From: Campylobacterota bacterium
GTDB taxonomy: Bacteria > Campylobacterota > Campylobacteria > Campylobacterales > Arcobacteraceae
Direction: 5' to 3'
NCBI GenBank assembly: GCA_034660335.1
Contig: JAYEJC010000113.1
Coordinates: forward strand, 13,731-77,730
Length of the DNA: 64,000 nucleotides
Below the pieces are notes generated by a model. It searched no databases. It saw only the letters and a list, made by a program, of their open reading frames with translations, and was not told where the DNA came from. The position numbers were made by a program, and so were the translations under genes. How positions within the stretch are numbered: position 1 is the first letter of the stretch; each line of letters starts with the position of its first letter. Positions 2,506-59,786 of this stretch are shown in pieces.

Positions 2506-4452
2506 ATGAATCAAAATAAAAATGTAATAGAAGAACAAAGTATAAACGATATAAATTATGAACTATTAAAAAAGCAGTTTCCTCATGCAGTTAGTATTGA
2601 TGAAGATGGCAAATATAGTATAGACCCTCAAAAACTCCAGATGAGTTTAGACCCATCAAAAGCTGAGATAAAAGAAGATGGCTATGGGCTTAATTGGGTA
2701 GGTAAAAAAGAAGCTTACCATACTGCTTTTACAAAAAATTATAAAGTATTAAAGCCTTTAAAAGACGATTCTAAAAACTGGGATGAAACAGAAAATATTC
2801 TTATAAAAGGAGATAATCTTGATGCTTTAAAAATCTTACGACAAAATTACTTTGAATCTATCAAGATGATATATATCGACCCACCTTACAATACTAAAAA
2901 CGATGGATTTGTTTACAATGATGACTTTACATCTTCTACTGAAAAAACACTTGAAGAGCTTGGATATGACAAAGAGTATATAGATTATATAGAAAATATA
3001 CAAGGAGCAAAAACACATAGTGGTTGGCTTAGTTTTATATATCCTAGATTATTACTTGCTAGAGATTTATTAAAAGATGATGGTGTTATTTTTATATCAA
3101 TTGATGATAATGAAATGGCACAGTTAAAGTTGCTTTGCGATGAAGTTTTTAGTGAAGATAATTTTATTGGGCAATTAGCAAGAAGAGCAAAGTCTTCTGG
3201 AAAAACAACAGATAAGCTTGCAAATAATCATGATTATTTACTTATTTATGAAAAAAACAAGTCTATCTTTCATCAAAATAAACATGATTTTAAAGGTTAT
3301 AATTTCAAAGATGAATATTTTGAAGAGAGAGGATATTATAAATTAAATCAAACTTTGGACTATGATAGTTTATCATATAGTAAATCTTTAGATTATCCAA
3401 TAGAGGTAGATGGAGATACTTTATATCCAGGTGGCAATAAAAATATATGGGAAGAAAGACAAAAGGGAAATCATAATCGTGCTGATTGGGCTTGGAGATG
3501 GAATAAAAAGTTATTTGATTTTGGTTATGCGAATGGATTTGTCGTTATTAAAAATGGGAAAGATAGAAAAAGAATTTATACTAAAACTTATGAAAAAGTA
3601 AGAATAAACAATAAAACACTTAAAATAGAAACATTTGATAGGGGTAAATCTTTAACAACAATTGAATTTGTAAATAAAGAGTATTCTAATGATAATGCAA
3701 CAAAAGAAATTAAAAATATATTTGGTAAATCATATTTTGATTATGCGAAGCCTACAAAATTGATTAAAAAGCTTATTGAGATAAATACTTGTAAAGATGC
3801 AATTATTATGGATTTTTTTGCAGGAAGTGGAACTACAGCTCATTCAATCATGGAATTAAATGCCCAAGATAATGGAAGAAGACAATTTATAACTGTACAA
3901 ATTCCTGAATCATTAGATAATAAAACGGATGCTTTTAGAGATGGATATGAAACTATTTTTGATATTACAAAGGCAAGGATTGATAAAGCTGGAAAAAAAC
4001 TAGAAGCTGAACACAATTCAAAATTAAACATTGAAAATTCAACATTAGATATAGGCTTTAGAACTTTTGAAATAGTAGAAGATCAAAAACAAAAAATCTA
4101 TCAAAAATCACTTGAAGAAGTAAGTCAAGATGATTTAGTGAGCTACATGGAAAAGCCTGATATTCAAACTTGTGAAGATATACTTTACAATCTTTTTGTA
4201 GCTGAGGCATTGCCACTTAGTACAAAACATGAAGAGCTTATAAAAGATAAGCTATACCTAGCTTCAAATGTAGCCTTTATACTGGGAGATATAACATCTG
4301 ATGAACTAGTAGATGCTTTAAAAGATAAAAAAGAGTGTGAATATATCACGGTTTATAGCCCAAATATTAGTGATGATAAGTTTACACTAGAGATTGAGAG
4401 TAATATATCAAAACTTGGTATCAAGCCTGATAAATTAAGATTTAGAGGATAA
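2506..4452 (+). CDS. mod: Type III restriction-modification system methyltransferase (Mod), N6-adenine beta-class
   Basis: Catalytic motif IV DPPYN (IYIDPPYN) precedes the AdoMet motif FFAGSGTT, which is the beta-class order. A variable middle region is likely the target-recognition domain. A 3-nt gap separates it from res. Confidence 0.9.
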   Translation: MNQNKNVIEEQSINDINYELLKKQFPHAVSIDEDGKYSIDPQKLQMSLDPSKAEIKEDGYGLNWVGKKEAYHTAFTKNYKVLKPLKDDSKNWDETENILIKGDNLDALKILRQNYFESIKMIYIDPPYNTKNDGFVYNDDFTSSTEKTLEELGYDKEYIDYIENIQGAKTHSGWLSFIYPRLLLARDLLKDDGVIFISIDDNEMAQLKLLCDEVFSEDNFIGQLARRAKSSGKTTDKLANNHDYLLIYEKNKSIFHQNKHDFKGYNFKDEYFEERGYYKLNQTLDYDSLSYSKSLDYPIEVDGDTLYPGGNKNIWEERQKGNHNRADWAWRWNKKLFDFGYANGFVVIKNGKDRKRIYTKTYEKVRINNKTLKIETFDRGKSLTTIEFVNKEYSNDNATKEIKNIFGKSYFDYAKPTKLIKKLIEINTCKDAIIMDFFAGSGTTAHSIMELNAQDNGRRQFITVQIPESLDNKTDAFRDGYETIFDITKARIDKAGKKLEAEHNSKLNIENSTLDIGFRTFEIVEDQKQKIYQKSLEEVSQDDLVSYMEKPDIQTCEDILYNLFVAEALPLSTKHEELIKDKLYLASNVAFILGDITSDELVDALKDKKECEYITVYSPNISDDKFTLEIESNISKLGIKPDKLRFRG

Positions 4453-4455
4453 TCT

Positions 4456-7398
4456 ATGGCTTTAAAAATAAAGTTTGATAGACTTGATTATCAAGAACAA
4501 GCAGTAAATAGTATAAGTGATCTGTTTAAAAATATATCATTTACACCAAATAACAATAGAAAAAGTAATCCATCTTTTGACTTACAACAATCTAAAAGTA
4601 TATTGGTAAATAATATCACAAATGTACGAGAATCAAACAAAGTGGATATTGGAGATATATCTATAAAAGATGAACTTGTAGTAGATACTCTTATGGAAAC
4701 AGGTACGGGTAAGACATTTACTTTTTTAGAATCAATTTATAAACTCAACCGAGATTATGGACTGTCAAAGTTCATAATCTTGGTACCATCAAACCCTATA
4801 CGACAAGGTACAATTAAAAATATCAAAATCACAAAAGAGTTTTTTGTAAAAGAGTATGGAAAACAAATATCAGTATTTAACTACAGTGAAAAAACAGTTT
4901 TAAACTATATTAATGCCAGTGATCAAAATATCTCAGTACTTGTATCGACTTATCAGTCATTTAACAAAGCATCTAACAATATAAATAAAAGTAAGATAGA
5001 ACAAAGCCTAATAGGGCGTGCAAAAAGCTATATGCAAGCTATCGCACAACTAAAACCTGTAATCATTATTGATGAACCACATAGATTTGAGGGTAAACAA
5101 ACTGCAAAATATCTAAAATCATTTAATGCTCTTTTTACACTACGATTTGGTGCTACATTTAAAGGTGATGAATACAAAAACCTTATCTATACACTTGATA
5201 GTGTAGATGCATTTAGTCAAGGACTTGTAAAGGCTATAACAGTTGATACAGTTGGAAATGAAAATGTTGATAATCATACTATTAGCTTTACAAAAGTAAC
5301 AGGAAAAACTCAAAAAGACTATATATCTACAATTGAATACAAAGACATAAATTCAAAGAATAAAAAAGTAGAACTTAAAAAAGGTGAAAACTTAGGTGAA
5401 AAGGTAGATATAGAATATCTTAATAGTTATGTAGTTGATAAGATTACTAAAAGTGAAATTGTATTTACAAATAGTATCTCTCTACCTTTAGGAGTTGGTG
5501 AAAGTTATGGTGTCTTACTTGACGAGATGCAAAAGGTTATCGTAGATACGGCTATAAAAAACCACTTTGAAAGAGAAGAGGAGCTTTTTAAACTTGATAT
5601 AAAAGCACTTTGTTTATTTTTTATAGATAGAGTTGATAAGTATCTTACAGATGATGGTACAAATGGTAAACTTGCAATTCTATTTGAAACATTATATTTA
5701 AAGAATCTAAATGATGTTTTAAAAAGAGATAATCTCGATGAGGATTACAAGAAGTACCTTTTAAAAACAAAAGATAGTATCAAAAAGATACATAGTGGAT
5801 ATTTTGCTAAGTCAAAAAAAGAGGGAGATGAAGCAGAAGCTATTGAACTTATTTTGAATAAGAAAGAGGAACTATTATCTTTTGATAGTGACCTTAGATT
5901 TATATTTTCACAATGGGCGTTACAAGAGGGATGGGATAATCCAAATGTAATGACACTTTGTAAATTAGCACCGAGTAATTCAAAAATATCAAAACTACAA
6001 CAAATAGGTAGAGGACTTAGACTTGCAGTTGCTCAAGATGGTAAAAGAATAACAAAAGATGATAGTAACTTTGACTTTATCAATGAACTATTTGTAGTAG
6101 TACCATCAACAGAAGAGAACTTTGTAGCATCTATTCAAAGTGAGATAAGTGAGCATAGTGTTAGACAAGTATCTAAGCTATTCAACGAAGATATAATGGT
6201 GGCAAATCATATAGCTACAACTTCAAGATCAGCAGTAAAACTACTTGATAAACTTGAAGATATGGAGTTTATAACCATAGATGATGAAGATATGAGTGAA
6301 ATAACTATATCTAAAGAGCAATATAGCTCAAGATCTAAAGAGTTGGAATCTTTAGATGTAAAAGGTTGTGATAGTAGTAAATTAAAAGAGTACTTTGATA
6401 GCTTCTTTAAAGCTCACAATAGAATCAAAGCAAAAGATAGAACTGCTAAAAAAGAAAAAGGGAAAATCAAAATCCACCAAGAAAATTTTAAAAAGTTTAA
6501 AACACTATGGGACAACTTAAACTATGATGCAGTTGTAAAATATGATATCAATAGTAATACTTTGGTAGAAACAGCAAAAAAGAAAATAGATGAAAACTTT
6601 ACAATAAGTGGTCAAGATATTATTGTAAAAAGAGATAAAAATGTAGAAAATCAAGATAAATATGATAGTGAAAAAGATACAATATTTATAGAAACTCACT
6701 CTATATTTACACTTTATGAGTTTATAAAAGCATTATCCAATAATACAAAACTTAGTATGCAAACGATAGCCAAAGTACTACATGGAATCAAAAAAGACAC
6801 ATTTGAATTAATACCTCAAAATGAGAACTTAGCACTTAAAAAAATTGAAGAACAACTTGTAAGTGCAATCTATGATACGATTATAAATAAAATATCTTAT
6901 GATTTAAAAGAGATAAAAACTTGTAACACTTCACTAACTGATAAAAACGGTAATATGAAAGAGTTTATTCCAGAGGGTAGCTTAGGTGTTGAAACATATA
7001 AAATTAAGTCTAAAAATATAAGAGAGTTATCAATCTACGATGAAGATTTTATGGAGGTTGATAGTAACATTGAAAAAACTACAATTGATGAGTCTAGTGA
7101 TAAAAAAATTACAGTATTTGGAAAACTACCAAAAGTGAATATCCCTACAGCTCATGGAAGAAACTATAATCCAGACTTTGGATATGTGATAGAGTCTAAA
7201 GATGATAAAGAATTATATTTTGTAGTTGAAACTAAAGGTTATGATACTTTTGAAGAGATTGGAGCAAAAGAGAAGTTGCAAACAGAAAGTGCAAAGGCAT
7301 TTTTTAAAAAACTACAAGAAAAAGGTGTAAATGTACACTATAAAACTAAGCTAAATAGTCCTGATTTATCAGTATTAATAAGTGATATTTTGAAGTAA
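4456..7398 (+). CDS. res: Type III restriction enzyme Res subunit (SF2 helicase plus C-terminal PD-(D/E)XK nuclease)
   Basis: Walker A-like METGTGKT, DEPH box (IIIDEPHRF) and QQIGRGLR motif VI are present. The C-terminal nuclease motif is NPDFGYV...FVVETKG. Confidence 0.9.
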   Translation: MALKIKFDRLDYQEQAVNSISDLFKNISFTPNNNRKSNPSFDLQQSKSILVNNITNVRESNKVDIGDISIKDELVVDTLMETGTGKTFTFLESIYKLNRDYGLSKFIILVPSNPIRQGTIKNIKITKEFFVKEYGKQISVFNYSEKTVLNYINASDQNISVLVSTYQSFNKASNNINKSKIEQSLIGRAKSYMQAIAQLKPVIIIDEPHRFEGKQTAKYLKSFNALFTLRFGATFKGDEYKNLIYTLDSVDAFSQGLVKAITVDTVGNENVDNHTISFTKVTGKTQKDYISTIEYKDINSKNKKVELKKGENLGEKVDIEYLNSYVVDKITKSEIVFTNSISLPLGVGESYGVLLDEMQKVIVDTAIKNHFEREEELFKLDIKALCLFFIDRVDKYLTDDGTNGKLAILFETLYLKNLNDVLKRDNLDEDYKKYLLKTKDSIKKIHSGYFAKSKKEGDEAEAIELILNKKEELLSFDSDLRFIFSQWALQEGWDNPNVMTLCKLAPSNSKISKLQQIGRGLRLAVAQDGKRITKDDSNFDFINELFVVVPSTEENFVASIQSEISEHSVRQVSKLFNEDIMVANHIATTSRSAVKLLDKLEDMEFITIDDEDMSEITISKEQYSSRSKELESLDVKGCDSSKLKEYFDSFFKAHNRIKAKDRTAKKEKGKIKIHQENFKKFKTLWDNLNYDAVVKYDINSNTLVETAKKKIDENFTISGQDIIVKRDKNVENQDKYDSEKDTIFIETHSIFTLYEFIKALSNNTKLSMQTIAKVLHGIKKDTFELIPQNENLALKKIEEQLVSAIYDTIINKISYDLKEIKTCNTSLTDKNGNMKEFIPEGSLGVETYKIKSKNIRELSIYDEDFMEVDSNIEKTTIDESSDKKITVFGKLPKVNIPTAHGRNYNPDFGYVIESKDDKELYFVVETKGYDTFEEIGAKEKLQTESAKAFFKKLQEKGVNVHYKTKLNSPDLSVLISDILK

Positions 7399-18897: not shown

Positions 18898-20607
18898 ATG
18901 CAAAATACAGCCTTAGATATACTAAAGACAGGTCAAAATTTATTTTTAACAGGATCAGCAGGTACAGGAAAGACATATATATTGCATCAGTATATTTTAT
19001 ATCTCAAAAAAAGAAAAATAATACCAACTATAGTAGCCCCTACAGGTATAGCAGCTTCCCATCTACATGGTCAGACTATCCACTCTTTTTTTGCTTTGGG
19101 TATAAGGTCTGATGTTGATGCTATGTTTGTTCAGTCATTGGTAGAAAAAAAATACCTCCAACCTAGATTTAAAAAACTAAAAGTATTGATAATAGATGAG
19201 ATATCTATGGTATCTCCTGAGGTTTTTGACTCTATTGATAAGATTTTGCAGGCTTTTAAACAAAGTCGTAAACCTTTTGGTGGTATTCAAGTGATACTCT
19301 CTGGTGATTTTTTTCAACTTCCACCTATATCAAAGCTCCAAACAGATAAAAGATTTGCTTGGCAGTCACCATCGTGGCGTGATTTGGAGTTGCAAACTTG
19401 TTATTTAGAAAAAAAATTTAGACAAGATGACAACCAACTTATATATGTACTAGATGAGATAAGAGCTGGTAAAGTATCTGATAAATCATATGAGATTCTA
19501 AACTCTAGATTTAACAAAGAGTTGAGTATAGATCACAAACCAACAAACTTATACACACACAATATAGATGTAGATAGAATAAACAACGATGAGCTAAATA
19601 TGCTACCATCAGAAGCGATTAAATTTTTATATTCAGGGGATGGTACTTCAAAAAATATAGAAAAAATATTTAAATCAGGACTATTATCACAAGAGCTATC
19701 GCTAAAAAAAGATGCTGTTGTTATGTTTATCAAAAACAACAATGAAAAAGGCTACACAAATGGCACAACAGGTGTTGTGATTGGTTTTGATAAGTATACA
19801 AAAAATCCTATAGTAAAGATATCAAACTCACATATAGTAAAAGTAGAACATGAAGATTGGACAATTGAAAATGAGAGTGGTAAAGTACTAGCAAAAGTAT
19901 CACAAATACCACTTAAGCTAGCATGGGCTATTACTATACACAAATCCCAAGGTATGACACTAGACTCAGCACAAATAGACTTATCAAAAACATTTGAAGT
20001 TGGTCAAGGGTATGTGGCATTATCAAGGATCAAAAATATTGAGGGACTAAAACTTATAGGACTAAATGATACTGCACTTAGTGTAGATCCTCTTATACTT
20101 CATATAGACCCTCGTATCAAACAAGCTAGTCAAAAAGCAAAGCAGAGTATAGAGTCATACACAAAAGAGGAGCTAGAGAGTTTATATATATCACATATCA
20201 AAAAACTAGGTGGTACTGTAGATAAGGTCCAAATAGAAAAAGAGACAAAAAAATTAGCAGAAAAAAAAGGCTTCGAACCAAAAGACAATACCCCTACTCA
20301 TATCAAAACAAAACAGTTGTTTGAAAAGGCAAACAACCTAAAAGAGCTAGCAGAAGCTAGAGATATAAGTATATCTACTATTATAAAACACCTAAGGCTT
20401 ATAAAACAAGATGATGATACTATTGATTTATCAAAGTTTTTACCAGATTTACAAACTACTACACTTATCAAAGAGAGTATTGAGGTGGTCAAAAAAAGAG
20501 CAAATACAGATGACTTTGGTCCAGATGGTACACTAAGACTAAAGCCTATATTTATTGAGTTGAATGAGAAAGTATCTTATGATGATATTAGACTTGTTTT
20601 ATTGTGA
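18898..20607 (+). CDS. Pif1/RecD-like SF1 DNA helicase with C-terminal helix-turn-helix region
   Basis: Walker A is GSAGTGKT and Walker B is LIIDEISMV. AITIHKSQGMTLD (UvrD_C_2-like) and a C-terminal HTH-like ARDISISTIIKHL are also present. Confidence 0.85.
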   Translation: MQNTALDILKTGQNLFLTGSAGTGKTYILHQYILYLKKRKIIPTIVAPTGIAASHLHGQTIHSFFALGIRSDVDAMFVQSLVEKKYLQPRFKKLKVLIIDEISMVSPEVFDSIDKILQAFKQSRKPFGGIQVILSGDFFQLPPISKLQTDKRFAWQSPSWRDLELQTCYLEKKFRQDDNQLIYVLDEIRAGKVSDKSYEILNSRFNKELSIDHKPTNLYTHNIDVDRINNDELNMLPSEAIKFLYSGDGTSKNIEKIFKSGLLSQELSLKKDAVVMFIKNNNEKGYTNGTTGVVIGFDKYTKNPIVKISNSHIVKVEHEDWTIENESGKVLAKVSQIPLKLAWAITIHKSQGMTLDSAQIDLSKTFEVGQGYVALSRIKNIEGLKLIGLNDTALSVDPLILHIDPRIKQASQKAKQSIESYTKEELESLYISHIKKLGGTVDKVQIEKETKKLAEKKGFEPKDNTPTHIKTKQLFEKANNLKELAEARDISISTIIKHLRLIKQDDDTIDLSKFLPDLQTTTLIKESIEVVKKRANTDDFGPDGTLRLKPIFIELNEKVSYDDIRLVLL

Positions 20608-20610
20608 AGT

Positions 20611-20715
20611 GTTAAAGTCACAACTTCGAAATCGCAACTAAAGTCCAGATTCCAAAAAGCTTGGAACGCCGACTTTTTCTAGTTCCCATCGACTCTGATG
20701 GGAGCTAGTTAAAAC
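20611..20715 (+). repeat. composite of the CCCATCG-hairpin repeat family (module A, inverted module B, collapsed 39-bp hairpin form)
   Basis: GTTAAAGTCACAACTTCGAAATCGCAACT also occurs at 25798-25832. AAAGTCCAGATTCCAAAAAGCTTGGAACGCCGACTTT is the reverse complement of part of 27367-27414. TTCTAGTTCCCATC-GACTCT-GATGGGAGCTAGTTAAAAC (20677-20715) forms a 12-bp stem with one G.T on the plus strand. Confidence 0.7.
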
Positions 20716-21854
20716 TTGATTTTATACCCACCTACTAATACCTTTTCATTCATAGCAAAGTTATACATACACTCAAGAGATATATACTTAAAATCGACTC
20801 CAAAAATTATATTTTTTGTTTCATAAATATAGCCTGTTTTAAAAGAGTGATTTTTATTGATTTTTGTTTTTATATATAGTTGATTAAATACTATATCATT
20901 ATACCCCTCCATGCTATCACCTATAGAGATGATATTATTTATTTTATAGTTTAGTGTTGATCTATAGTAGAGTGGTAGCTTTTGTTTATAGTCTATATCA
21001 TATCTATAGTATCCACTACCAAAAGGTCTGCTATGTTTATATCCGTCATCGCCTATATATATTGTTTGACCATTGAAATCATAGTGCATAAACTCTATAT
21101 CTTTCCAATACAAAAAAGAGTGTATATTATAAAACCCAGCGTGAAAATATAGTTTTTCATCGTTGTATATATACTCCAAATCTATAGCATATCCTATACC
21201 ATTTTCACTATTATCAAATCTTTTGTTTTTTGATATATGATTTTTATCTGAATAATAGTAGTCAAAGCTCATCTCAAATTGTTCTGCATTTTCCCCTGTG
21301 ACTGCCAAAGATTGTAGTTCACTCCCTTTTAAAAGCTTCAATTTTGAAGAAAAATAGTGTTTTTTTGTAGGGTTAAATATCTTTTGTATATATATACCAT
21401 TGGCTATATAGTAGCTAGCATCTCCATCTATAGTGGTATTTGTAATATAATCACCTATATCATCTTTGTTTAAAAGGGTATTGAAATCTTTTGTTGCATA
21501 AAACCATGTTTGGATAAAACCATCATTTGCATTTAGGTTTATACTTTTTTCATGAAACACACCTATTTTTATATCATCAAGATGATATGAGCCTTCAAAA
21601 TATATATCTCCATAAGCGTTATTTGTTTTGTTGTGTTTTGGCATTGTTAGCCATTTGTCATCAAAGATATCTATATCTAAGCTATCTGATTTTATATTTG
21701 TGTATCCACTTATATTTATACTATTATCTATATCTCTAAAGTCATTTTTTAAGTATTCTGCACAAGATATATAAGGCAATAAAAAAAGGCAAAATACAAT
21801 AATGTATTTTACCTTTTGTTGAATATCTTGACTAATAAGTTTAGAAAAAATCAT
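20709..21854 (-). CDS. hypothetical outer-membrane beta-barrel-like protein, co-operonic with the large lipoprotein
   Basis: It has a signal peptide, Tyr/Asn/Ile-rich alternating strands and a C-terminal GGYKIKF. A 3-nt gap separates it from the upstream gene. Confidence 0.45.
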   Translation of the reverse strand: MIFSKLISQDIQQKVKYIIVFCLFLLPYISCAEYLKNDFRDIDNSINISGYTNIKSDSLDIDIFDDKWLTMPKHNKTNNAYGDIYFEGSYHLDDIKIGVFHEKSINLNANDGFIQTWFYATKDFNTLLNKDDIGDYITNTTIDGDASYYIANGIYIQKIFNPTKKHYFSSKLKLLKGSELQSLAVTGENAEQFEMSFDYYYSDKNHISKNKRFDNSENGIGYAIDLEYIYNDEKLYFHAGFYNIHSFLYWKDIEFMHYDFNGQTIYIGDDGYKHSRPFGSGYYRYDIDYKQKLPLYYRSTLNYKINNIISIGDSMEGYNDIVFNQLYIKTKINKNHSFKTGYIYETKNIIFGVDFKYISLECMYNFAMNEKVLVGGYKIKF

Positions 21855-21857
21855 ATA

Positions 21858-24800
21858 CTAAAATAATGTTTCAGCACTATCATCAGAGTATTTGATCTCC
21901 CAATCATTTTCATTTTCATCTTCACCATATGTTGCAAGCTCATTACCATCTTTGTCTGTGAAGATTATAGAAGTGCTATCTTCTTCTGTATTATCATCTT
22001 GTTCTGACCAAGTATCTGTATATGTAGCTATCACACCATTGCTATCACCTATATTAAACACACTTGTATAGTTGCCATCTTCTGTTGCAGTTTCTGTTAG
22101 TTTTAGACCTAGTTTATAGCTATCACCTCTTGTTAGCATTGCGTATCCATTTACTACATCATTTTGTGTATCTGCTTTGACTGCAAGTGTAAATGGCTCA
22201 AATCCATTTGATTCTACATCTCCAGATATATCAAATGAACTTTGAGTTTCATCTCCTGATATATTTATTTTTCCATAAAAGCTTGTATCACCATAGCTAT
22301 AGTTACCATCAAAAAATACACTTTGTGTATTTGTAGAGTTTGTATAGTTTAAGTTTGCTATCACACTTAGTTCAGTACTCTGGCTATCTGTTACAGATAA
22401 AGCTAAGTTTTTCAGCTCTACAGAAGTGAACTCATCTGTATTTATACTATCATCTTCTTCATAGTAATTGTTATTCCAATTATCTGTACATGTATAGTTC
22501 TCAAAAGGACTATAATCATAACACTCTATTGATACTGCATCTGTAGATTTTAAGACTGCGACATTTAACTCATCTGCTTTGATACTAGATGAACCATCAC
22601 TTACTAATATATCTTTTGCGTAGTATGTAGTGCTATTAGAATACCCTAAGTTTCTCACCCCTAGTTCACCTTTGATAGTATTTGTACCATGTGTTAGCTC
22701 CCCTACAAATGACAACTCACCATTGTACTCCTCTACACTACTAGGCTCTCTCATAGTGATATTTGTGATATTTACAGCTTCACCATCTTGTTCTAATCTA
22801 TTATCTCCTATATCAAAATATATAGGACCTTTATCATCATCTACAAAATCAATTCTAGGTGTAATTGTAGTGCTATCAGAATCCCATGACCAATCTGTAT
22901 CTCCATAGTCTACTACCATCTCTTCACCATTGACTGTAGCTGTTACTATTTTTCCTGTTCCATCTAGTACCTCTACAGTACCACCTGTACACTGAGCACT
23001 ATTTGTCACAGTATATGTATTTGTTGTATAATCATCTATTCCAGTACGATTCACATCACAGCTTATAGTATCACCACTTTGTGTTAGAAGATTATATTGG
23101 CTATTTGAAGTATATGTCCAAGTAGAACTATTCTGATCGTAACTATAATCTGAATCATCACTATATGTCGTTTTCACTACAAGTGACTTCTCACCATCTG
23201 TTGGTGTAGCCATCACAAGTGTATATCCCCACATCCAATCCTGAGTCTTATCGTTGTCATCCTCTACTTCTTTTAGGTCATCCAAAGATACTTTTGCAGT
23301 GATAGTACCCTCAAAAGAAGGTTCAGTACCAGCACCTGTGTAGCTACCTACTAGTTGATTTTTTGTGTTGTCTGATTCACTTAAAGTAAGCTTACCATTT
23401 AGTGTTCTTCCACTTGATACTATTGTACCATCAAAAGTAGCTTCAAGATTATCTATAAAGTTTAGTGAGTTCTCTTGTGTTCTATCTAGTGAAAACTGAA
23501 TATCAAGATCAGTCAAAGTCATAGAAGAGTCATTGTCTCCATATATTGTACCACTTGCTTTTAGTGTGATATTATCATCTGCAAAAGATAGGCTACTTAG
23601 TGTTAGAGTATATTTACCCTCATCTTCAAGTGTGATAGCACCACTAGTTGATACAGAAGATAGTTCATCATTATCTAAATGAAGAGTGATAGTTTGCCCA
23701 TTTATAGTGATAGTTTCATCTATAGTACCATCAGTATTGCTATATGTATGAGAGATTTTATCACCTGTTTCACCTGACTCTATTGTCCAGTTTCCTTCCA
23801 TATCTTGAGAGCTTACAGTATCAAATCTACTTGCCAATAACTCTAAGTTTGTATCAAAGTTTGTTAAGCTATCACTAAAAGCACTCACCGATGTATCTAA
23901 AGCTGTCACTGTAGTATTTAGTGTTGTTTCCATAGCTTCTACTTTTGGCACTACTTTTGTATCTATATCATTTTTTTGACTACCTACTATTGTACTTGTA
24001 TTGTCATCATTTTCTAAGTCTATAAAAGTATTAGCTGTATCTCTTAAGTTTGAAAAAAGAGTTTTTGCATCCGCTACAGTTGCTACTTTTGTAGGTGATA
24101 ATAAAGAATCAACTTTAGCATCTAAAGTTGCCACTGTACCATCTTCATCTATTACCGCATCTTTTGCTGCTTCTGCTGCTTGATTCACTGTATCTTTAGA
24201 AGCTTGTACAACTGCATCTCCTGCAGCTTTAGCTTTATCTTCATCTACATCAATTGTTGAATCTTCTTCTTTAGCTTCAGTTATTACCTCTGCAATAATA
24301 TCTTCAATACTAGTGTTTTCTGTATCTTCAGCTTTTTTTGTACCTACACTTACTATCATATCAGATGTAAATCCAGATTCTGTAAGTTCTTCAAAAGCAT
24401 TAGAATTTGAATCTATAACATCTGTTGTAATAAAAGATTCTGTAAAAGTTGAGGCATCTAATGATTCTCCTTCATCAAGAGTATTTTCTTGAGTTTCTAT
24501 ATGTTGTGCTATTCCATCAACTCCACCCATCATTGATAGAGCATTGGATACTTTTACAGCTTCATCTTTTTTTGTTTCTATTTCATTTACGTCAGTTAAA
24601 TAAGCTATAGCTACAGCTTGTTCTTCGATAGTAGATGTTATCACTTCCATAGCTTTTGATTTTGTCTCTAACACTTCTGTTACATTTGCATTTTCAGCTG
24701 TTAGATCAGTTACATCCATAGCATTTATCATAGTTACTATTGATTGAGCTGATGATGCTACTGCTTTTAGTTTTGCTGCTGCATTTGTATCTTTTGCTAC

Positions 24801-25526
24801 CTCTTCATCTTCTGCTACTGCTGTAGCTATAGCTGTTGTATTTGCCATAATAGTATCAAAACCACTACCATCAGTAGAGTTTGAATCAGCTAGTTTAGTA
24901 GCTACCGCACTCATAACAGCATCAAAAGCAGCATCACTACCACCTACAGATTTAGCAAGAGTTTCTGCTGTTTTTTGAATAACCAAAGCTTTTTTGATAG
25001 CTGTAGCAGCTGCAGTTTTTTCATCATCTGTAGCCGTATCACTATTTAAAGTCTCAATAGGATCGGCATCAAGTGTATCTACTGAGATACCTAATTGTGA
25101 TGATACTGTATCTTTTGCATCATCTATTGATTTTCCACTTTGTACTAGTGCTGCTACAAGTGTAGTAAGTGGAGTAGTCACTACTTCACTACCATCTGTA
25201 GCTGCTGGTGCTTTTAATACACCCTCAAATACCTCACCTGTAGCAGTATCTGTACCACCACTTACTTCAACTATAGAACCATCAGGTATAACTACACCCT
25301 CAAAATTCCAATCACCATTTGCATCTGTTGTTGTAGTTTCTATCTCTTCACCTGAACTATTTTTTAGTACAACATTTGCACCAGAAACATAACCATCAAT
25401 CGCAACACCACTCATACTTTGAGTATCATCATTTGAACCTGAACCAGAACTAGAACCACACCCTACCAACAAAGCACTAGCTACTAGTGAAACAACTATC
25501 GTTTTATTAAACTTAAACATATACAC
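21858..25526 (-). CDS. very large acidic Asp/Thr/Ser-rich surface lipoprotein (1222 aa)
   Basis: It has a signal peptide with lipobox LLVGCGSS followed by a Gly/Ser linker. An N-terminal beta-sandwich-like module reads AIDGYVSGANVVL...TDANGDW. The rest is strongly acidic and low in hydrophobic residues. Confidence 0.7.
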   Translation of the reverse strand: MYMFKFNKTIVVSLVASALLVGCGSSSGSGSNDDTQSMSGVAIDGYVSGANVVLKNSSGEEIETTTTDANGDWNFEGVVIPDGSIVEVSGGTDTATGEVFEGVLKAPAATDGSEVVTTPLTTLVAALVQSGKSIDDAKDTVSSQLGISVDTLDADPIETLNSDTATDDEKTAAATAIKKALVIQKTAETLAKSVGGSDAAFDAVMSAVATKLADSNSTDGSGFDTIMANTTAIATAVAEDEEVAKDTNAAAKLKAVASSAQSIVTMINAMDVTDLTAENANVTEVLETKSKAMEVITSTIEEQAVAIAYLTDVNEIETKKDEAVKVSNALSMMGGVDGIAQHIETQENTLDEGESLDASTFTESFITTDVIDSNSNAFEELTESGFTSDMIVSVGTKKAEDTENTSIEDIIAEVITEAKEEDSTIDVDEDKAKAAGDAVVQASKDTVNQAAEAAKDAVIDEDGTVATLDAKVDSLLSPTKVATVADAKTLFSNLRDTANTFIDLENDDNTSTIVGSQKNDIDTKVVPKVEAMETTLNTTVTALDTSVSAFSDSLTNFDTNLELLASRFDTVSSQDMEGNWTIESGETGDKISHTYSNTDGTIDETITINGQTITLHLDNDELSSVSTSGAITLEDEGKYTLTLSSLSFADDNITLKASGTIYGDNDSSMTLTDLDIQFSLDRTQENSLNFIDNLEATFDGTIVSSGRTLNGKLTLSESDNTKNQLVGSYTGAGTEPSFEGTITAKVSLDDLKEVEDDNDKTQDWMWGYTLVMATPTDGEKSLVVKTTYSDDSDYSYDQNSSTWTYTSNSQYNLLTQSGDTISCDVNRTGIDDYTTNTYTVTNSAQCTGGTVEVLDGTGKIVTATVNGEEMVVDYGDTDWSWDSDSTTITPRIDFVDDDKGPIYFDIGDNRLEQDGEAVNITNITMREPSSVEEYNGELSFVGELTHGTNTIKGELGVRNLGYSNSTTYYAKDILVSDGSSSIKADELNVAVLKSTDAVSIECYDYSPFENYTCTDNWNNNYYEEDDSINTDEFTSVELKNLALSVTDSQSTELSVIANLNYTNSTNTQSVFFDGNYSYGDTSFYGKINISGDETQSSFDISGDVESNGFEPFTLAVKADTQNDVVNGYAMLTRGDSYKLGLKLTETATEDGNYTSVFNIGDSNGVIATYTDTWSEQDDNTEEDSTSIIFTDKDGNELATYGEDENENDWEIKYSDDSAETLF

Positions 25527-25797: not shown

Positions 25798-25985
25798 TTA
25801 AAGTCATAGGTTCATCGAAATCGCAACTTTAGTTACGACTGCTAATATGCCCCGACTGAAGTCGGCGTTCCGATTCTTTCTAGTTCCCATCGTCTCTGAT
25901 GGGAATTCATACTTATATTTTACTACTCATAATTATTCAAACACCAATATACACTTCCATCGAGGACGATGGGAGCGAGTTAAAG
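25798..25985 (+). repeat. composite repeat: module A (25798-25832), module C (25835-25873) and 108-bp double-hairpin unit E1 (25878-25985)
   Basis: E1 is TTCTAGTTCCCATCG-TCTC-TGATGGGA, an AT-rich core, then TTCCATCG-AGGA-CGATGGGAGCGAGTTAAAG. It is 106/108 identical to E2. Module C recurs at 27415-27454. Confidence 0.8.
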
Positions 25986-25999
25986 AATTTGTTATCTCT

Positions 26000-26257
26000 T
26001 TAAGCTACTTTTTTAAGTGAAACCTCTAACATATTTTCTATATTTAAATGATAATCTATTGATTCCCATTCAATACCAGTATTTAAACAAATTAGTTTAT
26101 AGTCTTTTAATTGTGTTATTGTTGCTTTTTTTAATGGTTCATACCATTCAATAGGTGTTGATATAATTCTATTGTCTTCCAATTTAACATGAAGATATTC
26201 TTCATCAAAGTGAACTTCTTTACCTTTAATTAAACCATTCATCCCAAATCCTTTCAA
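26000..26257 (-). CDS. DUF2442 family protein
   Basis: The DUF2442-like pattern is LHVKLEDNRIISTPIEWYEPLKKAT...GIEWESIDYHL. The track start is TTG; the ATG at 26242 (MNGLIKGK) is the more likely start. Confidence 0.7.
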   Translation of the reverse strand: MKGFGMNGLIKGKEVHFDEEYLHVKLEDNRIISTPIEWYEPLKKATITQLKDYKLICLNTGIEWESIDYHLNIENMLEVSLKKVA

Positions 26258-26452
26258 ATTTATTTTTGTTTTCTTCTACAATCTCAAGTGCCAACTTTAA
26301 GTCTTTAGGTTTTAATAGTTCTGAACTACTTTTAAATTTTCTAATTCTACTTTAGCAAATCCATCAGATCTACTTATGTGAATATGTTTTGGTTCATGTT
26401 CGTTTGCATAAAAGAAAAATTTAAAACCATTTTTATTTAATAAAGTTGGCAA
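26226..26452 (-). pseudogene. DUF4160 family gene, frameshifted
   Basis: A TTG start at 26452 follows AAGGA. The translation LPTLLNKNGFKFFFYANEHEPKHIHISRSDGFAKVELENLKVVQNY stops at 26312-26314. The homologous C-terminus KPKDLKLALEIVEENKNKFERIWDEWFN continues in another frame to 26226, overlapping the DUF2442 start as in intact pairs. Confidence 0.6.
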
Positions 26453-26497
26453 ATTAAAATCCTTGTTTATATTTCATATATTATAACTAAAATACTC

Positions 26498-26605
26498 TTC
26501 TAGTTCCCATCGTCCCCGATGGGAATTCATACTTATATTTTACTACTCATAATTATTCAAACACCAATATACACTTCCATCGAGGACGATGGGAGCGAGT
26601 TAAAG
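26498..26605 (+). repeat. 108-bp double-hairpin unit E2
   Basis: It is identical to E1 except for TCTCT to TCCCC in the left hairpin, which gives a perfect 8-bp stem with a 4-nt loop. It shares the upstream ATAACTAAAATACTC leader with E3. Confidence 0.8.
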
Positions 26606-26687
26606 TCTACCGTTACAGGTCAATATTTCAGAAAAATCTACATATAAAAGTATTGCTATTTTATAAAACTTATGATAGACTATCTCT

Positions 26688-26966
26688 ATGAAAAAAGCAA
26701 ACTTTGAGTGGGATGATAACAAAAATATATCAAACCAAGAAAAACATCATCTTTCTTTTGAAAAAGCACAAAGTGCTTTTTTAGATGAAAATAGAATTAT
26801 TGCCGAAGATTTAGAACACAGCCAAGATGAAAAAAGATATTTTTGTTTTGGTCAAGTTAATAAAGAAATTATAACTGTAAGATTTGTTTACAGAAATAAT
26901 AAAATTAGAATCTTTGGTGCAGGATATTGGAGAAAAGGAAAAAAGATTTATGAAAAAAATAATTAA
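26688..26966 (+). CDS. brnT: BrnT family (DUF497) type II toxin
   Basis: It begins FEWDDNKN..NQEKH..SFE.A and ends IRIFGAGYWRKGKKIYE, which is typical of DUF497/BrnT. It overlaps brnA. Confidence 0.85.
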   Translation: MKKANFEWDDNKNISNQEKHHLSFEKAQSAFLDENRIIAEDLEHSQDEKRYFCFGQVNKEIITVRFVYRNNKIRIFGAGYWRKGKKIYEKNN

Positions 26967-27198
26967 ATATACAGATGAACCAATTGGAGATATAAAAATC
27001 ATAGAAGATTTTTTACCATCACCAAAAGATTTAATCTTTAAAGAAGAGAATGTAAAAGTTACAATCTCTTTGACAAAAGAAAGTATCGACTTTTTTAAAG
27101 CAGAAGCTAAAAAACATCATACTCAATATCAAAAAATGATAAGAAATTTATTGGATGTTTATGCAGAAAATCATAGTCGTGGATTAGCCAACCTATAA
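26950..27198 (+). CDS. brnA: BrnA antitoxin (CopG/RHH-like)
   Basis: The in-frame ATG at 26950 gives MKKIIKYTDEPIG...DFLPSPKDL...KVTISLTKESIDFFKAEAKKHHTQYQKMIRNLLDVY. The track start at 26884 is probably too far upstream. Confidence 0.8.
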   Translation: MKKIIKYTDEPIGDIKIIEDFLPSPKDLIFKEENVKVTISLTKESIDFFKAEAKKHHTQYQKMIRNLLDVYAENHSRGLANL

Positions 27199-27241
27199 CA
27201 AATCATTAAAATTAATATATAAAGAATAACTAAAAATACTC

Positions 27242-27490
27242 TTCTAGTTCTCATCGTCTCTGATGGGAATTCATACTTATCTTTTTCTATTCATAATTAT
27301 TCAAACACCAATATACACTCCCATCAGAGAGAGACTGTGAAATAACCTAAAAGTATTTCATTACACCCAGACTAAAGTCGGCGTTCCAAGCTTTTCGGAA
27401 TCTGGACTTTAGTCCAGACTGTTAATATGCCCAGACTAAAGTCGTGGGTTCCGACATGATTTTTTCTCGCTCCCATCGCGATAGGAACTA
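27242..27490 (+). repeat. composite repeat: truncated unit E3 (27242-27325), module B palindrome (27367-27414), module C (27415-27454) and an inverted collapsed hairpin (27464-27490)
   Basis: E3 matches E1/E2 up to ATATACACTCCCATC and then diverges. CCAGACTAAAGTCGGCGTTCCAAGCTTTTCGGAATCTGGACTTTAGTC is an imperfect 48-bp palindrome. TTCTCGCTCCCATCGCGATAGGAACTA is the hairpin unit in reverse orientation and abuts the MFS stop codon. Confidence 0.75.
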
Positions 27491-27492
27491 TA

Positions 27493-28719
27493 TCAATCTT
27501 TTAATTTAAATGATAAGTAAAGTGAAATAAAAAGTAAAACAAGTGTAAAACTATATAAAAAAGTATAATTTGAAAAGTTTAAAATAATTCCACCAAATAA
27601 AGAGAAAAATATCCCAATAGAGGTGATATTTGTTTGTAATGCACTATACACAGGTCTTCTATCTTCTGGTGCTAATATTAGTATAAGGTTTCCAGAAGAG
27701 ATTCTGTTTCCATCCATAGAAGCCCCAACAATAAAAAATATCAACATATACATATATAATGAATCAGCAATAAAAGCTAAAGCTATTGAAACAATAGTCA
27801 TAATAATAGTGATATTTGCAATAAGTTTATTAAGCCCTTTTGAACTTAGCTTTCCCCATAAAATATTACTAAACATAGCACCAACCATCTGAGCTGTGAT
27901 AAGTATACCTATAGTAGTACCTGAGAGTTCTATCTTTGTTTTTGCATCTAAAATAATAAAAGGCAAAGAAAAAAGATAAGAATATGCTAATAAAAATGTC
28001 CCTATTTGTATCTGTAAATCTTTATCCATTTTAAGTGTTTTTAAGGCATTTTGTAAAAAAAGAGAAAATGACTTCTCTTTTTTAGCTACATTCTCTTTTT
28101 TTGGTTCAGTAACAGTTCCAAATGCAAAAAGTCCAATACCCATCAAAAAAGCACTAGCCATAAAAAGTATTCCATAACTATACGGTGGTTCAAAAGCCTC
28201 AAGCATATATCCAGTAACAGCCCCACTAATAATAGCAGCAAATGCAGAAAAGAATTGTCGTACAGCCATAGTTTTTCCACGAAACTTATGTGTAAAAAGT
28301 TTTGCTGTGAGTTCTCTAAAATATATAGCCCCAAAACCAGCTGAAAATGAAAATATAAAAAGACCAATACCAATACTAAGAAGGGATAAGTTTTTATACT
28401 CATCTCCAAATACCATAATAGCAACACCTATAAAAAACCATGCTATAAATCTAAACCAAAAAACTCTTCTAAGATATTTTAACATATACGGATAACTTTG
28501 AGCATGAAAAGCAGCATAAAGCTGAACTACAATAGCACCACCTCTAAGTAAAGATGAAAAAAATCCAATCAAAATAGATCCACCACCAAAGTGACTTATA
28601 ATAAGTGGTAATATTGTATGAGGTTCTGCTATTGTTGTACTAATTGAGAGAAAAAATCCATGTAAGACATTTTTTATATGGTTGCCCTTAGAGTCCATAG
28701 AGTGTTGTTTTTGTGACAT
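27493..28719 (-). CDS. MFS family transporter
   Basis: It is predicted to have about 12 TM segments in a 6+6 layout with a central basic loop (EPKKENVAKKEKS). Confidence 0.75.
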   Translation of the reverse strand: MSQKQHSMDSKGNHIKNVLHGFFLSISTTIAEPHTILPLIISHFGGGSILIGFFSSLLRGGAIVVQLYAAFHAQSYPYMLKYLRRVFWFRFIAWFFIGVAIMVFGDEYKNLSLLSIGIGLFIFSFSAGFGAIYFRELTAKLFTHKFRGKTMAVRQFFSAFAAIISGAVTGYMLEAFEPPYSYGILFMASAFLMGIGLFAFGTVTEPKKENVAKKEKSFSLFLQNALKTLKMDKDLQIQIGTFLLAYSYLFSLPFIILDAKTKIELSGTTIGILITAQMVGAMFSNILWGKLSSKGLNKLIANITIIMTIVSIALAFIADSLYMYMLIFFIVGASMDGNRISSGNLILILAPEDRRPVYSALQTNITSIGIFFSLFGGIILNFSNYTFLYSFTLVLLFISLYLSFKLKD

Positions 28720-41781: not shown

Positions 41782-41858
41782 GACCCTGTCGTCTAGTTGG
41801 CCAAGGACTCATGGTTTTCATCCATGTAACGGTAGTTCAAATCTATCTGGGGTCGCCA
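41782..41858 (+). tRNA. tRNA-Glu (anticodon UUC)
   Basis: A manual cloverleaf fits: acceptor GACCCTG/TGGGGTC, D stem GTCT/GGAC, anticodon stem CATGG/CCATG with loop TT-TTC-AT, and T arm GGTAG-TTCAAAT-CTATC. The 3' CCA is encoded. Confidence 0.9.
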
Positions 41859-42010: not shown

Positions 42011-42340
42011 TCATTTCAGTTTAATTAATCTTTGAAATAATATATCCTCTAAATTCCTACTCGAATCCACTACTAATAAAACATAAACTTTTGTATTGTC
42101 AATTTTATATATTATTCTCCACCTTTTGTGGATAATTTCTCTATATTTCAAAATGCCAATTTGTTGTAATTCTGGTACAATTCTTTTTCTTTCTGGGAAA
42201 AAATATAAATTATTACACTCTTTTTTAATTTCAAAAAATATTTTCTTTGCTGTACTTAAACTATCAGTTTTTATATATTCAATAATTAATTCTAAATCAA
42301 ATTGGGCACTTTTTGTCCATATGATTTCAAACTGTTTCAT
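42011..42340 (-). CDS. RelE/ParE family type II toxin
   Basis: This 109-aa protein has the ParE-like pattern WTKSAQFDLELIIEYI...GILKYREIIHKRWRIIYKIDNTKVYVLLVVD. It lies 9 nt downstream of the antitoxin gene. Confidence 0.8.
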   Translation of the reverse strand: MKQFEIIWTKSAQFDLELIIEYIKTDSLSTAKKIFFEIKKECNNLYFFPERKRIVPELQQIGILKYREIIHKRWRIIYKIDNTKVYVLLVVDSSRNLEDILFQRLIKLK

Positions 42341-42349
42341 TTAATTTTC

Positions 42350-42619
42350 TCAAAATAATTTTTGTTCTAAGTTGTTAAACATTTTTTCTTGTTCAATAAC
42401 ATTATTGTTTTCAATATCGTTTTCACCCTGAACAATTAATTTTAATAAATTTAAAGAATTTTGTAAATTTTCGTAACTTTTAATATCTTGAACAACTGCT
42501 TTTGCCTCACCATTTTGTGTTATGATTATTGCTCTTTGATTTTCATTTACATTATTTATAACATCAGCTGTTTTTGTTTTTAAATAACTAATTGGTTTTA
42601 TATCTTGACTTAAATACAT
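42350..42619 (-). CDS. Phd/YefM family antitoxin
   Basis: The N-terminal Phd/YefM pattern is ISYLKTKTADVINNVNENQRAIIITQNGEAKAVVQDIKSYE. Confidence 0.8.
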   Translation of the reverse strand: MYLSQDIKPISYLKTKTADVINNVNENQRAIIITQNGEAKAVVQDIKSYENLQNSLNLLKLIVQGENDIENNNVIEQEKMFNNLEQKLF

Positions 42620-43445: not shown

Positions 43446-43451
43446 ACTCAA

Positions 43452-43791
43452 AAGGTACAACGATAAGCTGAGTTTTGTAGTTAATAATAATTTATCTAGC
43501 TGACAATTTACATAGTCAATCTAGCGAAAAGGATAATTGTGAAGTTTTACCAATCTTTTCTTGCTGCAGGTTGGGTTTACATAGCCGTTAAGATTACTCA
43601 AAACGCTGGTGGGCTCTTACTCTACCGTTTCACCTTTTCTTCATCTCTAACCAAGAGTGAAGTAGTATACTTTCTGTTGCACTGTCCCTTAGGTTACCCT
43701 AGCCATCAGTTAGATGGAACCATACTTCACAGCAGCCCAGACTTTCCTCTTTGATTAAGTAAATAATCAAAGCTATTATTTGTCATACCTT
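43452..43791 (-). ncRNA. rnpB: RNase P RNA (bacterial type A)
   Basis: The minus strand reads ...TTGATTATTTACTTAATCAAA (P3) then GAGGAAAGTCTGGGCTGCTGTG, the universal P4 5' strand. Near the 3' end it reads ACAAAACTCAGCTTATCG. P1 pairs AAGGTA with TACCTT. The ends are approximate. The region is GC-rich relative to its surroundings, and the plus-strand ORF 43539..43754 is an artefact. Confidence 0.85.
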
Positions 43792-59378: not shown

Positions 59379-59624
59379 TTATATAGTTGCTACTTTAGAG
59401 TTTAATTCTTGTAATCTTTGAGCTATCCACATTTTTATGACTGCTTGTCTGCTTACTCCAATATGCTTTGCTTCTTTGTCTAATGATTTAACCATCCAAG
59501 ATGGAAAATCAATATTTATTCTTTTGGGTTCTTCATTTATCATTCTTATTTTTGATGTATCGAAATATTCTAATATATCTTCTTTATTATCACCAAATTT
59601 TTTATCTATTTCTAATGCTTTCAT
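59379..59624 (-). CDS. brnA: BrnA antitoxin (CopG/RHH-like)
   Basis: RINIDFPSWMVKSLDKEAKHIGVSRQAVIKMWIAQRL is the typical BrnA C-terminus. Confidence 0.75.
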   Translation of the reverse strand: MKALEIDKKFGDNKEDILEYFDTSKIRMINEEPKRINIDFPSWMVKSLDKEAKHIGVSRQAVIKMWIAQRLQELNSKVATI

Positions 59625-59775
59625 AAAGTTTTATCTCTTTTTCTCTTGATCTTCTTACGGAAATTATTCTAATATTAGGTATTCTATAAGTAATTATTGC
59701 TGTATAATTTTTAGAATTAATTTGACCTAATACTAAAAATCTTTTCTCCTAGGTTTTGTTGTATGTTTCACTACT
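59602..59775 (-). pseudogene. 5'-truncated brnT (DUF497) toxin remnant with an in-frame stop
   Basis: The minus-strand frame reads SSETYNKT*EKRFLVLGQINSKNYTAIITYRIPNIRIISVRRSREKEIKLYESIRNR*. This is the BrnT C-terminal core (E.RF..LG ... IRIIS.R). The roughly 45 N-terminal residues are missing, and the Fic gene stop lies 12 nt upstream. Confidence 0.55.
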
Positions 59776-59786
59776 TCAATGCTCGA

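Follow-up and report, generated by a model that had tools for sequence, protein, structure and literature searches.

Tagged hairpin dimers between toxin-antitoxin-type modules of an Arcobacter-like bacterium: a probable REPIN-type family of the Campylobacterota

The stretch of DNA analysed here (64,000 nucleotides of contig JAYEJC010000113.1 from the Arcobacteraceae assembly GCA_034660335.1; hereafter the window) is AT-rich chromosomal DNA with 27-34% G+C, in which the segment from 25.8 to 27.5 kb carries near-identical 108-nt repeat units alternating with small toxin-antitoxin-type gene modules. Each unit consists of two inverted hairpins, and we argue below that these are probably repetitive extragenic palindromes (REPs) joined into dimers of the REPIN type (REP doublets forming hairpins) and served by a REP-associated tyrosine transposase (RAYT), rather than sites of an integron. 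The features of both repeat loci in the window are as follows (coordinates, strand, description).

20608-20676, strand not assigned: mosaic of small hairpin modules beside the solo REP, from repeat comparison.
20677-20713, plus: solo REP hairpin CTAGTTCCCATCGACTCTGATGGGAGCTAG, read as CTAG TTCCCATCG actc TGATGGGAG CTAG TTAAAAC.
25798-25877, plus: left flanking module modA (GACT-NN-AGTC family), adjoining the tag of E1.
25878-25985, plus: unit E1, a probable REP dimer (REPIN-type), from repeat finding, motif scan and folding.
25880-25905, plus: left REP of E1, CTAG TTCCCATCG tctc TGATGGGAA, with an AT-rich spacer after it.
25954-25979, inverted: right REP of E1, the bottom strand reading CTCG CTCCCATCG tcct CGATGGAAG.
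26000-26452, minus: module 1, a DUF2442 gene and a frameshifted DUF4160 gene (Pfam).
26498-26605, plus: unit E2.
26688-27198, plus: module 2, brnT and a gene for a BrnA-like antitoxin (Pfam).
27242-27328, plus: unit E3, comprising the left REP, the spacer and the 5' arm of the right REP (CTCCCATC), where the right hairpin is interrupted.
27329-27457, plus: second small element modB, starting with GAGAGACTGTGAAATAAC and holding three GACT-NN-AGTC hairpins.
27458-27490, minus: inverted loop-less hybrid REP, TAGTTCCTATCG abutting CGATGGGAGCGAG on the bottom strand, adjoining the 3' end of a major facilitator superfamily (MFS) gene (27493-28719(-)).

A repeat finder returns a single 108-nt family at 25878-25985, 26498-26605 and 27242-27349, with all three copies on the same strand. 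E1 and E2 share 98% identity (106/108), and their two differences both fall into the left hairpin, where the loop changes from TCTC to TCCC and a closing G.T pair becomes G-C; E3 matches E1 at 94% over 84 nt (27242-27325) and at 78% overall, and shares with E2 about 18 nt more on the left side (ATAACTAAAA(A)TACTCTT). With intervals of 512 bp (E1-E2) and 636 bp (E2-E3), the three copies proposed in the original prediction, which had been made from the letters of the window alone, are borne out in position, identity and spacing, as is its placement of both E1/E2 differences.

The plan of the unit is that of two inverted tagged hairpins, 5'-CT(A/C)G-TTCCCATCG-loop-CGATGGGAA-TxCATAC, whose tags point outward and which are separated by a spacer of 40-65 nt. 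Each REP in turn is made up of the 5'-CT(A/C)G tag, a 9-10 bp stem beginning (T/C)TCC, a pyrimidine loop of 2-4 nt, the complementary stem and T(G/T)(C/T)ATAC, and the combination of tag, 9-10 bp stem and 2-4 nt loop was seen in every copy, both in the window and in the loci fetched from other genomes and metagenomes (labelled L plus a number below). Over the whole unit the inverted arms measure 46 nt and are 72% complementary. The hairpin motif TTCCCATCG-N5-GATGGGAA has 12 matches over both window strands (0.02 expected by chance), and five REP-bearing sites at two loci result. One of these loci is the solo REP about 5 kb upstream of the array, which is set between convergent genes for a Pif1-like helicase (18898-20607(+)) and a 381-aa open reading frame (ORF; 20709-21854(-)) and is preceded by modules that recur on the array flanks. 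The other ends in the inverted copy; this had been predicted at 27464-27490 and does exist, as a loop-less hybrid hairpin, its coordinates being 27458-27490.

When folded as single-stranded DNA (ssDNA), each strand of the whole unit gives a single long hairpin (z -3.4 to -8.4), and the two strands of E2 fold about equally well (z -4.05 vs -4.01) with symmetric stems and no asymmetric extrahelical bases. Covariation was tested on the right hairpin, which is left unconstrained by the search pattern described below, over 12 distinct copies: 89.7% of cells are paired (26-49% in slid controls), five of nine pairs change on both sides (e.g. four changes each from C-G to A-U and from U-A to C-G) and none of 500 shuffles reaches the observed score. 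Examples of such changes are CCATCG/CGATGG to CAATTG/CAATTG and to CCATCA/TGATGG. The hairpin structure is under selection, and the covariation that the original prediction had suggested looking for is indeed there. In L003, L011, L012 and L021 the right hairpin reads TTCCAATTG/CAATTGGAA and the left is still TTCCCATCG/CGATGGGAA; since the right stem has changed with the left one held constant, each local hairpin is kept at the cost of end-to-end complementarity. Compensatory change alone is compatible with a folded single strand and with a symmetric duplex site alike. A strand-specific fold had been predicted on the grounds that all G.T pairs lie on one strand. For the window copies (plus strand only) that pattern holds; however, both strands fold equally, and L012 has a C.A mismatch on the same strand, contrary to a G.T-only rule, so that a fold specific to one strand is not established. 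The accompanying hint at an enzyme acting on single strands fits a tyrosine transposase of the HUH class (see below).

The 108-bp repeats are real and the family belongs to this lineage. Scanning 185,579 representative genomes with the pattern TAGTTCCCATCG-N5-GATGGGA gave 12 loci, 10 of them in metagenome-assembled genomes (MAGs) of marine Campylobacterota and two GC-rich ones without the rest of the unit; a metagenome scan added about nine further real copies, and a scan of viral contigs with the left-hairpin pattern gave zero matches. Among the pattern matches, those in L006, L010 and L014 (GC-rich contigs, one conserved position, no rest of the unit) and in L022 and L024 (rest of the unit missing) were set aside as unrelated, and a protein-database search with the translated unit (spurious ORFs over copies) returned no candidates. 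In total, about 20 copies were seen in the intergenic DNA of at least eight MAGs or metagenomes of Campylobacterota, in agreement with the predicted occurrence in related Campylobacterota. Full units read CTAG, TTCCCATCG, loop TCCC, CGATGGGAA, (C/T)TCATACTT, a variable core of 30-65 nt, (AAGTATG)CA, a second hairpin with loop GGGA or AGGA, and CGAG. Solo hairpins are known from the window (20.7 kb) and L023. Direct target-site duplications are absent at all of the ~15 copies inspected. Outside arrays nearly all copies stand singly between ordinary or housekeeping genes.

What connects the family to an enzyme is the contig L003, which carries the unit and encodes a 177-aa RAYT. This protein scores 106.7 bits with NCBIfam model NF047646 (cut-off 80), reaches only 18 bits with the IS200 model and matches E. 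coli TnpA_REP (PDB 4ER8) weakly. Its relatives number more than 4000 at E <= 1e-10; those with a source name belong to Sulfurovum, Sulfuricurvum, Nitratifractor and other Campylobacterota, and the Joint Genome Institute labels several of them 'REP element-mobilizing transposase RayT'. All seven relatives tested exceed the NF047646 cut-off, tested enzymes of this family scoring 93-107 bits with NF047646 and ~19 bits with IS200 model NF033573 (cut-off 55). In seven of nine Campylobacterota RAYT loci fetched (L003, L037, L038, L049, L052, L053, L056) the gene is bracketed by inverted hairpins, one per strand, in the frame CTCG-stem-cc-stem-TGCATAC (CTTG on one side in L003), with the tags outward and the TGCATAC-like bases toward the gene. 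The stems at these loci (TCCCAAAGCT, TTCCACCAG, TCCCCAAGCT, CTCCACCAG, TTCCCACGC and TTCCCAACG) differ from TTCCCATCG of the window, the nearest being TTCCCACGC in L053. In the same scan the window unit reads CTAG TTCCCATCGT cc CCGATGGGAA ttcatac on the plus strand and CTCG CTCCCATCG tcct CGATGGAAG tgtatat on the minus strand and so has the frame of the RAYT-flanking hairpins with a different stem. Whole units, too, adjoin RAYT genes (L048, L056). Directly upstream of the RAYT gene in L048 lies CTAG TTCCACCAG tcctc TGGTGGAA TTCATACCTATATTTTA ... GGCA TTCCACCTC tggag AGGTGGAA TGAG, whose frame CTAG TTCCACCAG..GGAA TTCATACCTATATTTTA is almost identical to CTAG TTCCCATCG..GGAA TTCATACTTATATTTTA of the window and whose left third differs from E2 almost only in stem bases.

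A REPIN is defined by two inverted REP hairpins in a unit that folds as one long hairpin (PMC3337134, PMC3116915), and the window unit matches the description 'HH dimer with conserved 20-100 bp spacer' (PMC3733652). The relationship of such elements, and of REPtrons, to RAYT enzymes has been described for E. coli and Pseudomonas (PMC3333891, PMC3337134, PMC3116915, PMC3733652), and E. coli TnpA_REP binds REPs only when single-stranded, depends on the 5' tetranucleotide and on a mismatch in the stem, and cleaves between C and T (PMC3333891). Our units share with the REPINs of Pseudomonas fluorescens and the bacterial interspersed mosaic elements (BIMEs) of E. coli the inverted palindromes, a four-base 5' tag and a spacer of tens of bases; they fold into a long hairpin, appear to be extragenic and dispersed (often just after genes) without target duplication, and cluster with other small repeats into mosaics, and hairpins related to them, with other stems, bracket a single RAYT gene with tags outward, in what resembles the REPtron layout. 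We therefore consider it probable that the 108-bp units are no integron sites but REP dimers of the REPIN type, a Campylobacterota family with a CT(A/C)G tag that is served by a RAYT; most likely this enzyme is one of the 177-aa RAYTs that abound in the phylum. What is observed is the anatomy of the units, their dispersal, the covariation of the hairpins and the way in which sister families flank RAYT genes; that a RAYT moves this particular family we infer. Mechanistically, a RAYT (an HUH enzyme of the single-tyrosine Y1 type) encoded elsewhere in the genome would recognise the folded hairpin and its 5' CT(A/C)G tag on ssDNA, and would cut and rejoin there, copying or moving the dimer. Units may thereby have spread in trans to intergenic sites without leaving target duplications, and 25.8-27.5 kb would be a mosaic cluster of units and a second hairpin element, comparable to BIME clusters or to clusters of neisserial intergenic mosaic elements (NIMEs).

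Two truncations would agree with mobility or recombination at the ends of units. In L007 (1435-1569(-)) a RelE/ParE-like toxin ORF, recognised by eye and without a Pfam match, is cut off after 32 codons, precisely where unit U2 has its right end, and in L003 (2826-3400) a truncated second RAYT (65 aa, 88% aa identity to the intact one) and a truncated 3' fragment of ilvC adjoin the two ends of the unit. In L003 the unit may have been the site of a genuine rearrangement, or this short metagenome contig may have been joined chimerically.

Several points weigh against our reading or set the family apart from known REPINs. No RAYT gene lies in the 64-kb window, and the exact cognate enzyme, i.e. 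one flanked by TTCCCATCG stems, was not found among the RAYT homologue loci examined, which carry hairpins of the same frame on different stems. Instead of the classical GTAG the tag is CTAG/CTCG (a difference in the first base), and the host is an Arcobacter-like member of the Campylobacterota with 29% G+C and not a gamma-proteobacterium. Copy density appears low, with two loci in 64 kb, a count that covers the window only. The units of both arrays (window and L007) are all co-oriented and 98% identical within each array, which fits local duplication or site-specific recombination as well, and small gene modules between adjacent units are not a described feature of REPIN clusters. Lastly, some of the supporting loci are short metagenome contigs that may be mis-joined at repeats (L003).

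Related mobile elements of the IS200/IS605 family of insertion sequences and their gene-less derivatives, the palindrome-associated transposable elements (PATEs), resemble the present system in that subterminal hairpins are recognised on ssDNA by a Y1 HUH enzyme, inverted repeats are not cleaved, targets are not duplicated and derivatives are mobilised in trans. They are unlike it in two respects, the enzyme scoring as a RAYT (NF047646) and not as IS200 (NF033573), and both ends being inverted copies of one hairpin and not two different hairpins on the same strand. If the REPIN-type reading is right, domesticated mobile DNA of the REPIN/RAYT kind, mostly studied in gamma-proteobacteria, extends to marine Arcobacter-like and Sulfurovum-like Campylobacterota. 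The conservation of the frame, with stem bases varying among RAYT loci, would suit a study of enzyme-hairpin specificity, and annotators may note that integron-looking palindrome arrays with toxin-antitoxin modules can be REP clusters.

How gene modules came to lie between units we likewise infer. The cassette-like layout of small addiction-type modules that the original prediction had pointed out is real and recurs: in four genomes (window, L007, L048, L056) co-oriented, near-identical units enclose small genes, in two of them right next to a RAYT gene. Besides the two modules of the window, the enclosed genes are, in L007, a lipoprotein gene with a 91-aa ORF and a truncated toxin-antitoxin pair; in L048 (1590-3360), a 177-aa non-RAYT gene (weakly YraN/NERD nuclease-like) immediately upstream of the RAYT gene, between two units with two differences and each preceded by partial hairpin arms (CCTCGCTCCACCT); and in L056 (905-2270, a Campylobacterales MAG), a row of RAYT gene, its right hairpin, a DUF4160/DUF2442 pair and a full unit. 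The DUF4160 modules of window and L056 share only ~49% protein identity, and no identical module was seen in two places among the loci examined. The 91-aa ORF of L007 (1064-1339(-)), which lies between two units, has sub-threshold matches to SAM-like N-terminal domains of phage integrases (18.9 bits against a cut-off of 27, and 17.0 against 22.3); it may be part of an integrase or a small protein of another kind. At the start of the same contig (1-95(+)) stands the C-terminus of an ORF, 31 residues without a Pfam match, which we take to resemble Rpn/Transposase_31.

A further reading, though to our minds an unlikely one, is that a RAYT acting in trans on two same-strand units excises or captures the DNA between them, as an HUH-driven analogue of integron cassette arrays. 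Such cassette mobilisation is favoured by the bracketed genes in four genomes, two of them beside RAYT genes, and by the toxin gene cut at a unit boundary. Alternatively, the bracketing could be chance co-accumulation in permissive intergenic DNA. If mobilisation were true, RAYTs would shuffle toxin-antitoxin and other small accessory genes in Campylobacterota, a result of clear interest; of all our findings, only this repeated enclosure of small accessory genes by units could lead to something new.

Among the rival explanations, a primary role at the RNA level fares best, in which the units act as stem-loops in 3' untranslated or intergenic regions that stabilise, terminate or insulate transcripts, or as small RNAs, with spread being secondary. 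Many copies do lie 6-47 nt past a co-oriented stop codon, the G.T pairs of the window copies are on the top strand, and REPs in other bacteria are known to act in this way (PMC3733652). However, some 8 of ~19 copies have no co-oriented gene upstream of them, the hairpins are not followed by a T-run, one strand folds as well as the other, and Rfam 15, at gathering and at permissive thresholds, offers no family for the region, where the best hits stay far below threshold (24 bits vs 65). A role in RNA also leaves the hairpins that bracket RAYT genes unexplained; it is compatible with the REP reading and not an alternative to it, and nothing sets it apart from the usual situation of REPs. As a primary role, we hold it to be improbable.

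Less probable still is the integron reading of the original prediction, by which the units would be non-canonical attC-like sites of a system akin to a cluster of attC sites lacking an integrase (CALIN), each module being moved with its downstream unit by a tyrosine recombinase encoded elsewhere. The resemblance to sedentary chromosomal integrons such as the Vibrio cholerae repeats (VCRs) is considerable: near-identical one-strand imperfect palindromes of ~100 nt, foldable over their whole length, separate single small modules (toxin-antitoxin ones included) in the window and in L007, and the right ends of Arcobacter-type copies, G^TTAAAG or G^TTGAAA (the caret marking the G^TTRRR-type boundary), match GTTRRRY at six of seven positions. 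To this may be added the sub-threshold integrase-like matches of the 91-aa ORF of L007 (18.9 bits, cut-off 27). Yet these right ends have no matching RYYYAAC box on the left, and they are missing from most family members, the other copies ending in CGAGAGAAAA or CTAGTAAAA. There are neither R''/L'' boxes nor extrahelical bases, and both strands fold alike. As the original prediction had itself conceded, canonical R-boxes are absent, and no intI, RAYT or other recombinase gene was found in the window by Pfam on ~38 ORFs, the remainder being recognisable housekeeping genes by eye; nor was an intI noticed in any fetched locus. Units moreover stand singly beside housekeeping genes, units of sister families flank RAYT genes, and the toxin gene of L007 is cut exactly at a unit end, which attC x attI or attC x attC recombination would not yield. 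Hence we do not retain the CALIN interpretation, nor that of a hitherto undescribed cassette-recombination site; the unit appears to be of the REP/BIME/REPIN type, an already catalogued kind of repeat, and its closest relatives flank RAYT genes.

It is similarly remote, and slightly more so, that the hairpins are targets of a single-strand nuclease of the GIY-YIG type like Ssn of Neisseria, which acts on NTS/dRS3 repeats, and thereby modulate recombination of incoming DNA. The likeness to the NTS element CGTC-ATTCCCGCG-loop-CGCGGGAAT-CYRG (PMC11893778) includes a 4-nt tag, a TTCCC...GGGAA stem, mosaic intergenic arrays around variable accessory genes, as also seen with NIMEs (CGTC-tagged REPs), and an enzyme gene flanked by its own repeats, and CGTC-type repeats have been reported in Sulfurovum (PMC3733652). 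The tag of our family, however, is CTAG/CTCG and not CGTC, the gene between such hairpins in seven loci encodes an HUH tyrosine transposase (RAYT) and not a GIY-YIG nuclease, and no GIY-YIG match occurs among the scanned proteins of the window or of the loci. An ordinary miniature transposable element of the inverted-repeat kind (MITE) derived from an insertion sequence with a DDE transposase, which terminal inverted repeats of ~35 bp and a size of ~100 bp might suggest, is hardly credible, given the lack of target-site duplications at ~15 copies, the fact that each end is itself a conserved, internally covarying hairpin even against end-to-end complementarity, and sister families that bracket Y1 transposase genes.

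The region from 25.8 to 27.5 kb is a mosaic of at least two small repeat families. Both array flanks (25798-25877 and 27350-27457) carry a second hairpin family with a GACT-NN-AGTC core, which is also present in L007, L011 and L032, and the modules beside the solo REP are related to these flanks, 20637-20676 being the reverse complement of 27374-27413 (97%) and 20612-20676 resembling 25798-25877. E3, of which only the left 84 nt had been predicted to remain, retains the 5' arm of its right hairpin, after which the sequence runs on into GAGAGACTGTGAAATAAC; the array in L007 closes with the same variant. In L032 (2545-2760) the hairpin downstream of a RAYT gene has within its loop an element of ~190 nt with terminal inverted repeats AGAGACTGTGAAAGAAC / GTTCTTTCACAGTCTCT, whose 18-mer end motif is also seen after E3 (window 27329-27346) and after the final L007 unit (1942-1959). 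Because GAGAGACTGTGAAATAAC recurs in L007 and as the end of the L032 inverted-repeat element, the right hairpin of E3 looks interrupted by the end of another small inverted-repeat element and not simply truncated, the 84-nt match itself being correct. The L032-type element appears to be another miniature element, one with REP loops as its target.

The gene content of the intervals is as predicted. In module 1, Pfam identifies DUF2442 at 26000-26257(-) (E 2e-13) and the N-terminal part of DUF4160 at 26312-26452(-), the remainder of that gene being in another frame; in module 2, BrnT is identified at 26688-26966(+) (E 4.5e-22), and the BrnA-like ORF (26950-27198(+)) scores under the family cut-off. 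Module 1 has ~70% nucleotide identity to the same gene pair on Campylobacter coli plasmids, and in the plasmid search matches were confined to the coding parts of both modules, with no unit matched. Relatives of the adjoining MFS gene show 65-94% identity and, where they have a source name, all come from Arcobacteraceae or other Campylobacterota. Around its closer homologues (82-94% aa, L026-L031) the gene order DHH-YebC-MFS is kept, synteny stops exactly at the MFS stop codon, and what comes next differs in every relative, be it CorA, a putative gene of GGDEF type (assigned by eye) or small ORFs. None of these syntenic relatives carries units and no empty site was recovered among them; L007 was considered as an orthologous locus and ruled out, its flanks having no match in the window. 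Since synteny in the relatives ends exactly at the MFS stop codon and units are absent there, the array occupies a synteny break, i.e. a recombination-prone variable junction where foreign modules accumulate. Horizontal acquisition of both toxin-antitoxin-type modules is part of what we regard as the best explanation of the locus.

A number of minor observations concern the surroundings. Each unit contains a weak sigma-70-like match of doubtful meaning (TTCATA-16-CATAAT, 9 of 12; 25906-25933, 26526-26553 and 27270-27297, all (+)), and a promoter/terminator scan of the region gave no excess of promoter-like sites (17 vs 13.8 +/- 3.3). Between the two repeat loci lies the gene for a 1222-aa acidic, Thr/Asp/Ser-rich predicted lipoprotein (21858-25526(-)), with a signal peptide ending in LVGC and only a weak match to a carboxypeptidase-regulatory-like domain; it has no counterpart in the fetched syntenic relatives. 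Two further toxin-antitoxin-type loci of the window have no REP units nearby: a ParE/Phd-YefM locus next to the tRNA gene (42011-42619(-)), and a Fic gene with a sub-threshold CopG-antitoxin-like neighbour (59379-60581(-)). RNase P RNA class A (43448-43791(-), 236.7 bits) and a tRNA (41782-41855(+)) are the sole matches in the window at Rfam gathering scores, and a 71-aa ORF (43539-43754(+)) that overlaps the RNase P RNA is probably spurious. The window also encodes a type III restriction-modification pair, Mod (2506-4452) and Res (4456-7398), both (+) and 3 nt apart. In the Sulfurovum MAG locus L037 (69-4534) the RAYT gene with its flanking hairpins sits between an N6_N4_Mtase methylase gene and a ResIII/RE_endonuc gene, i.e. 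between genes with the same Pfam domains as the type III Mod/Res pair of the window.

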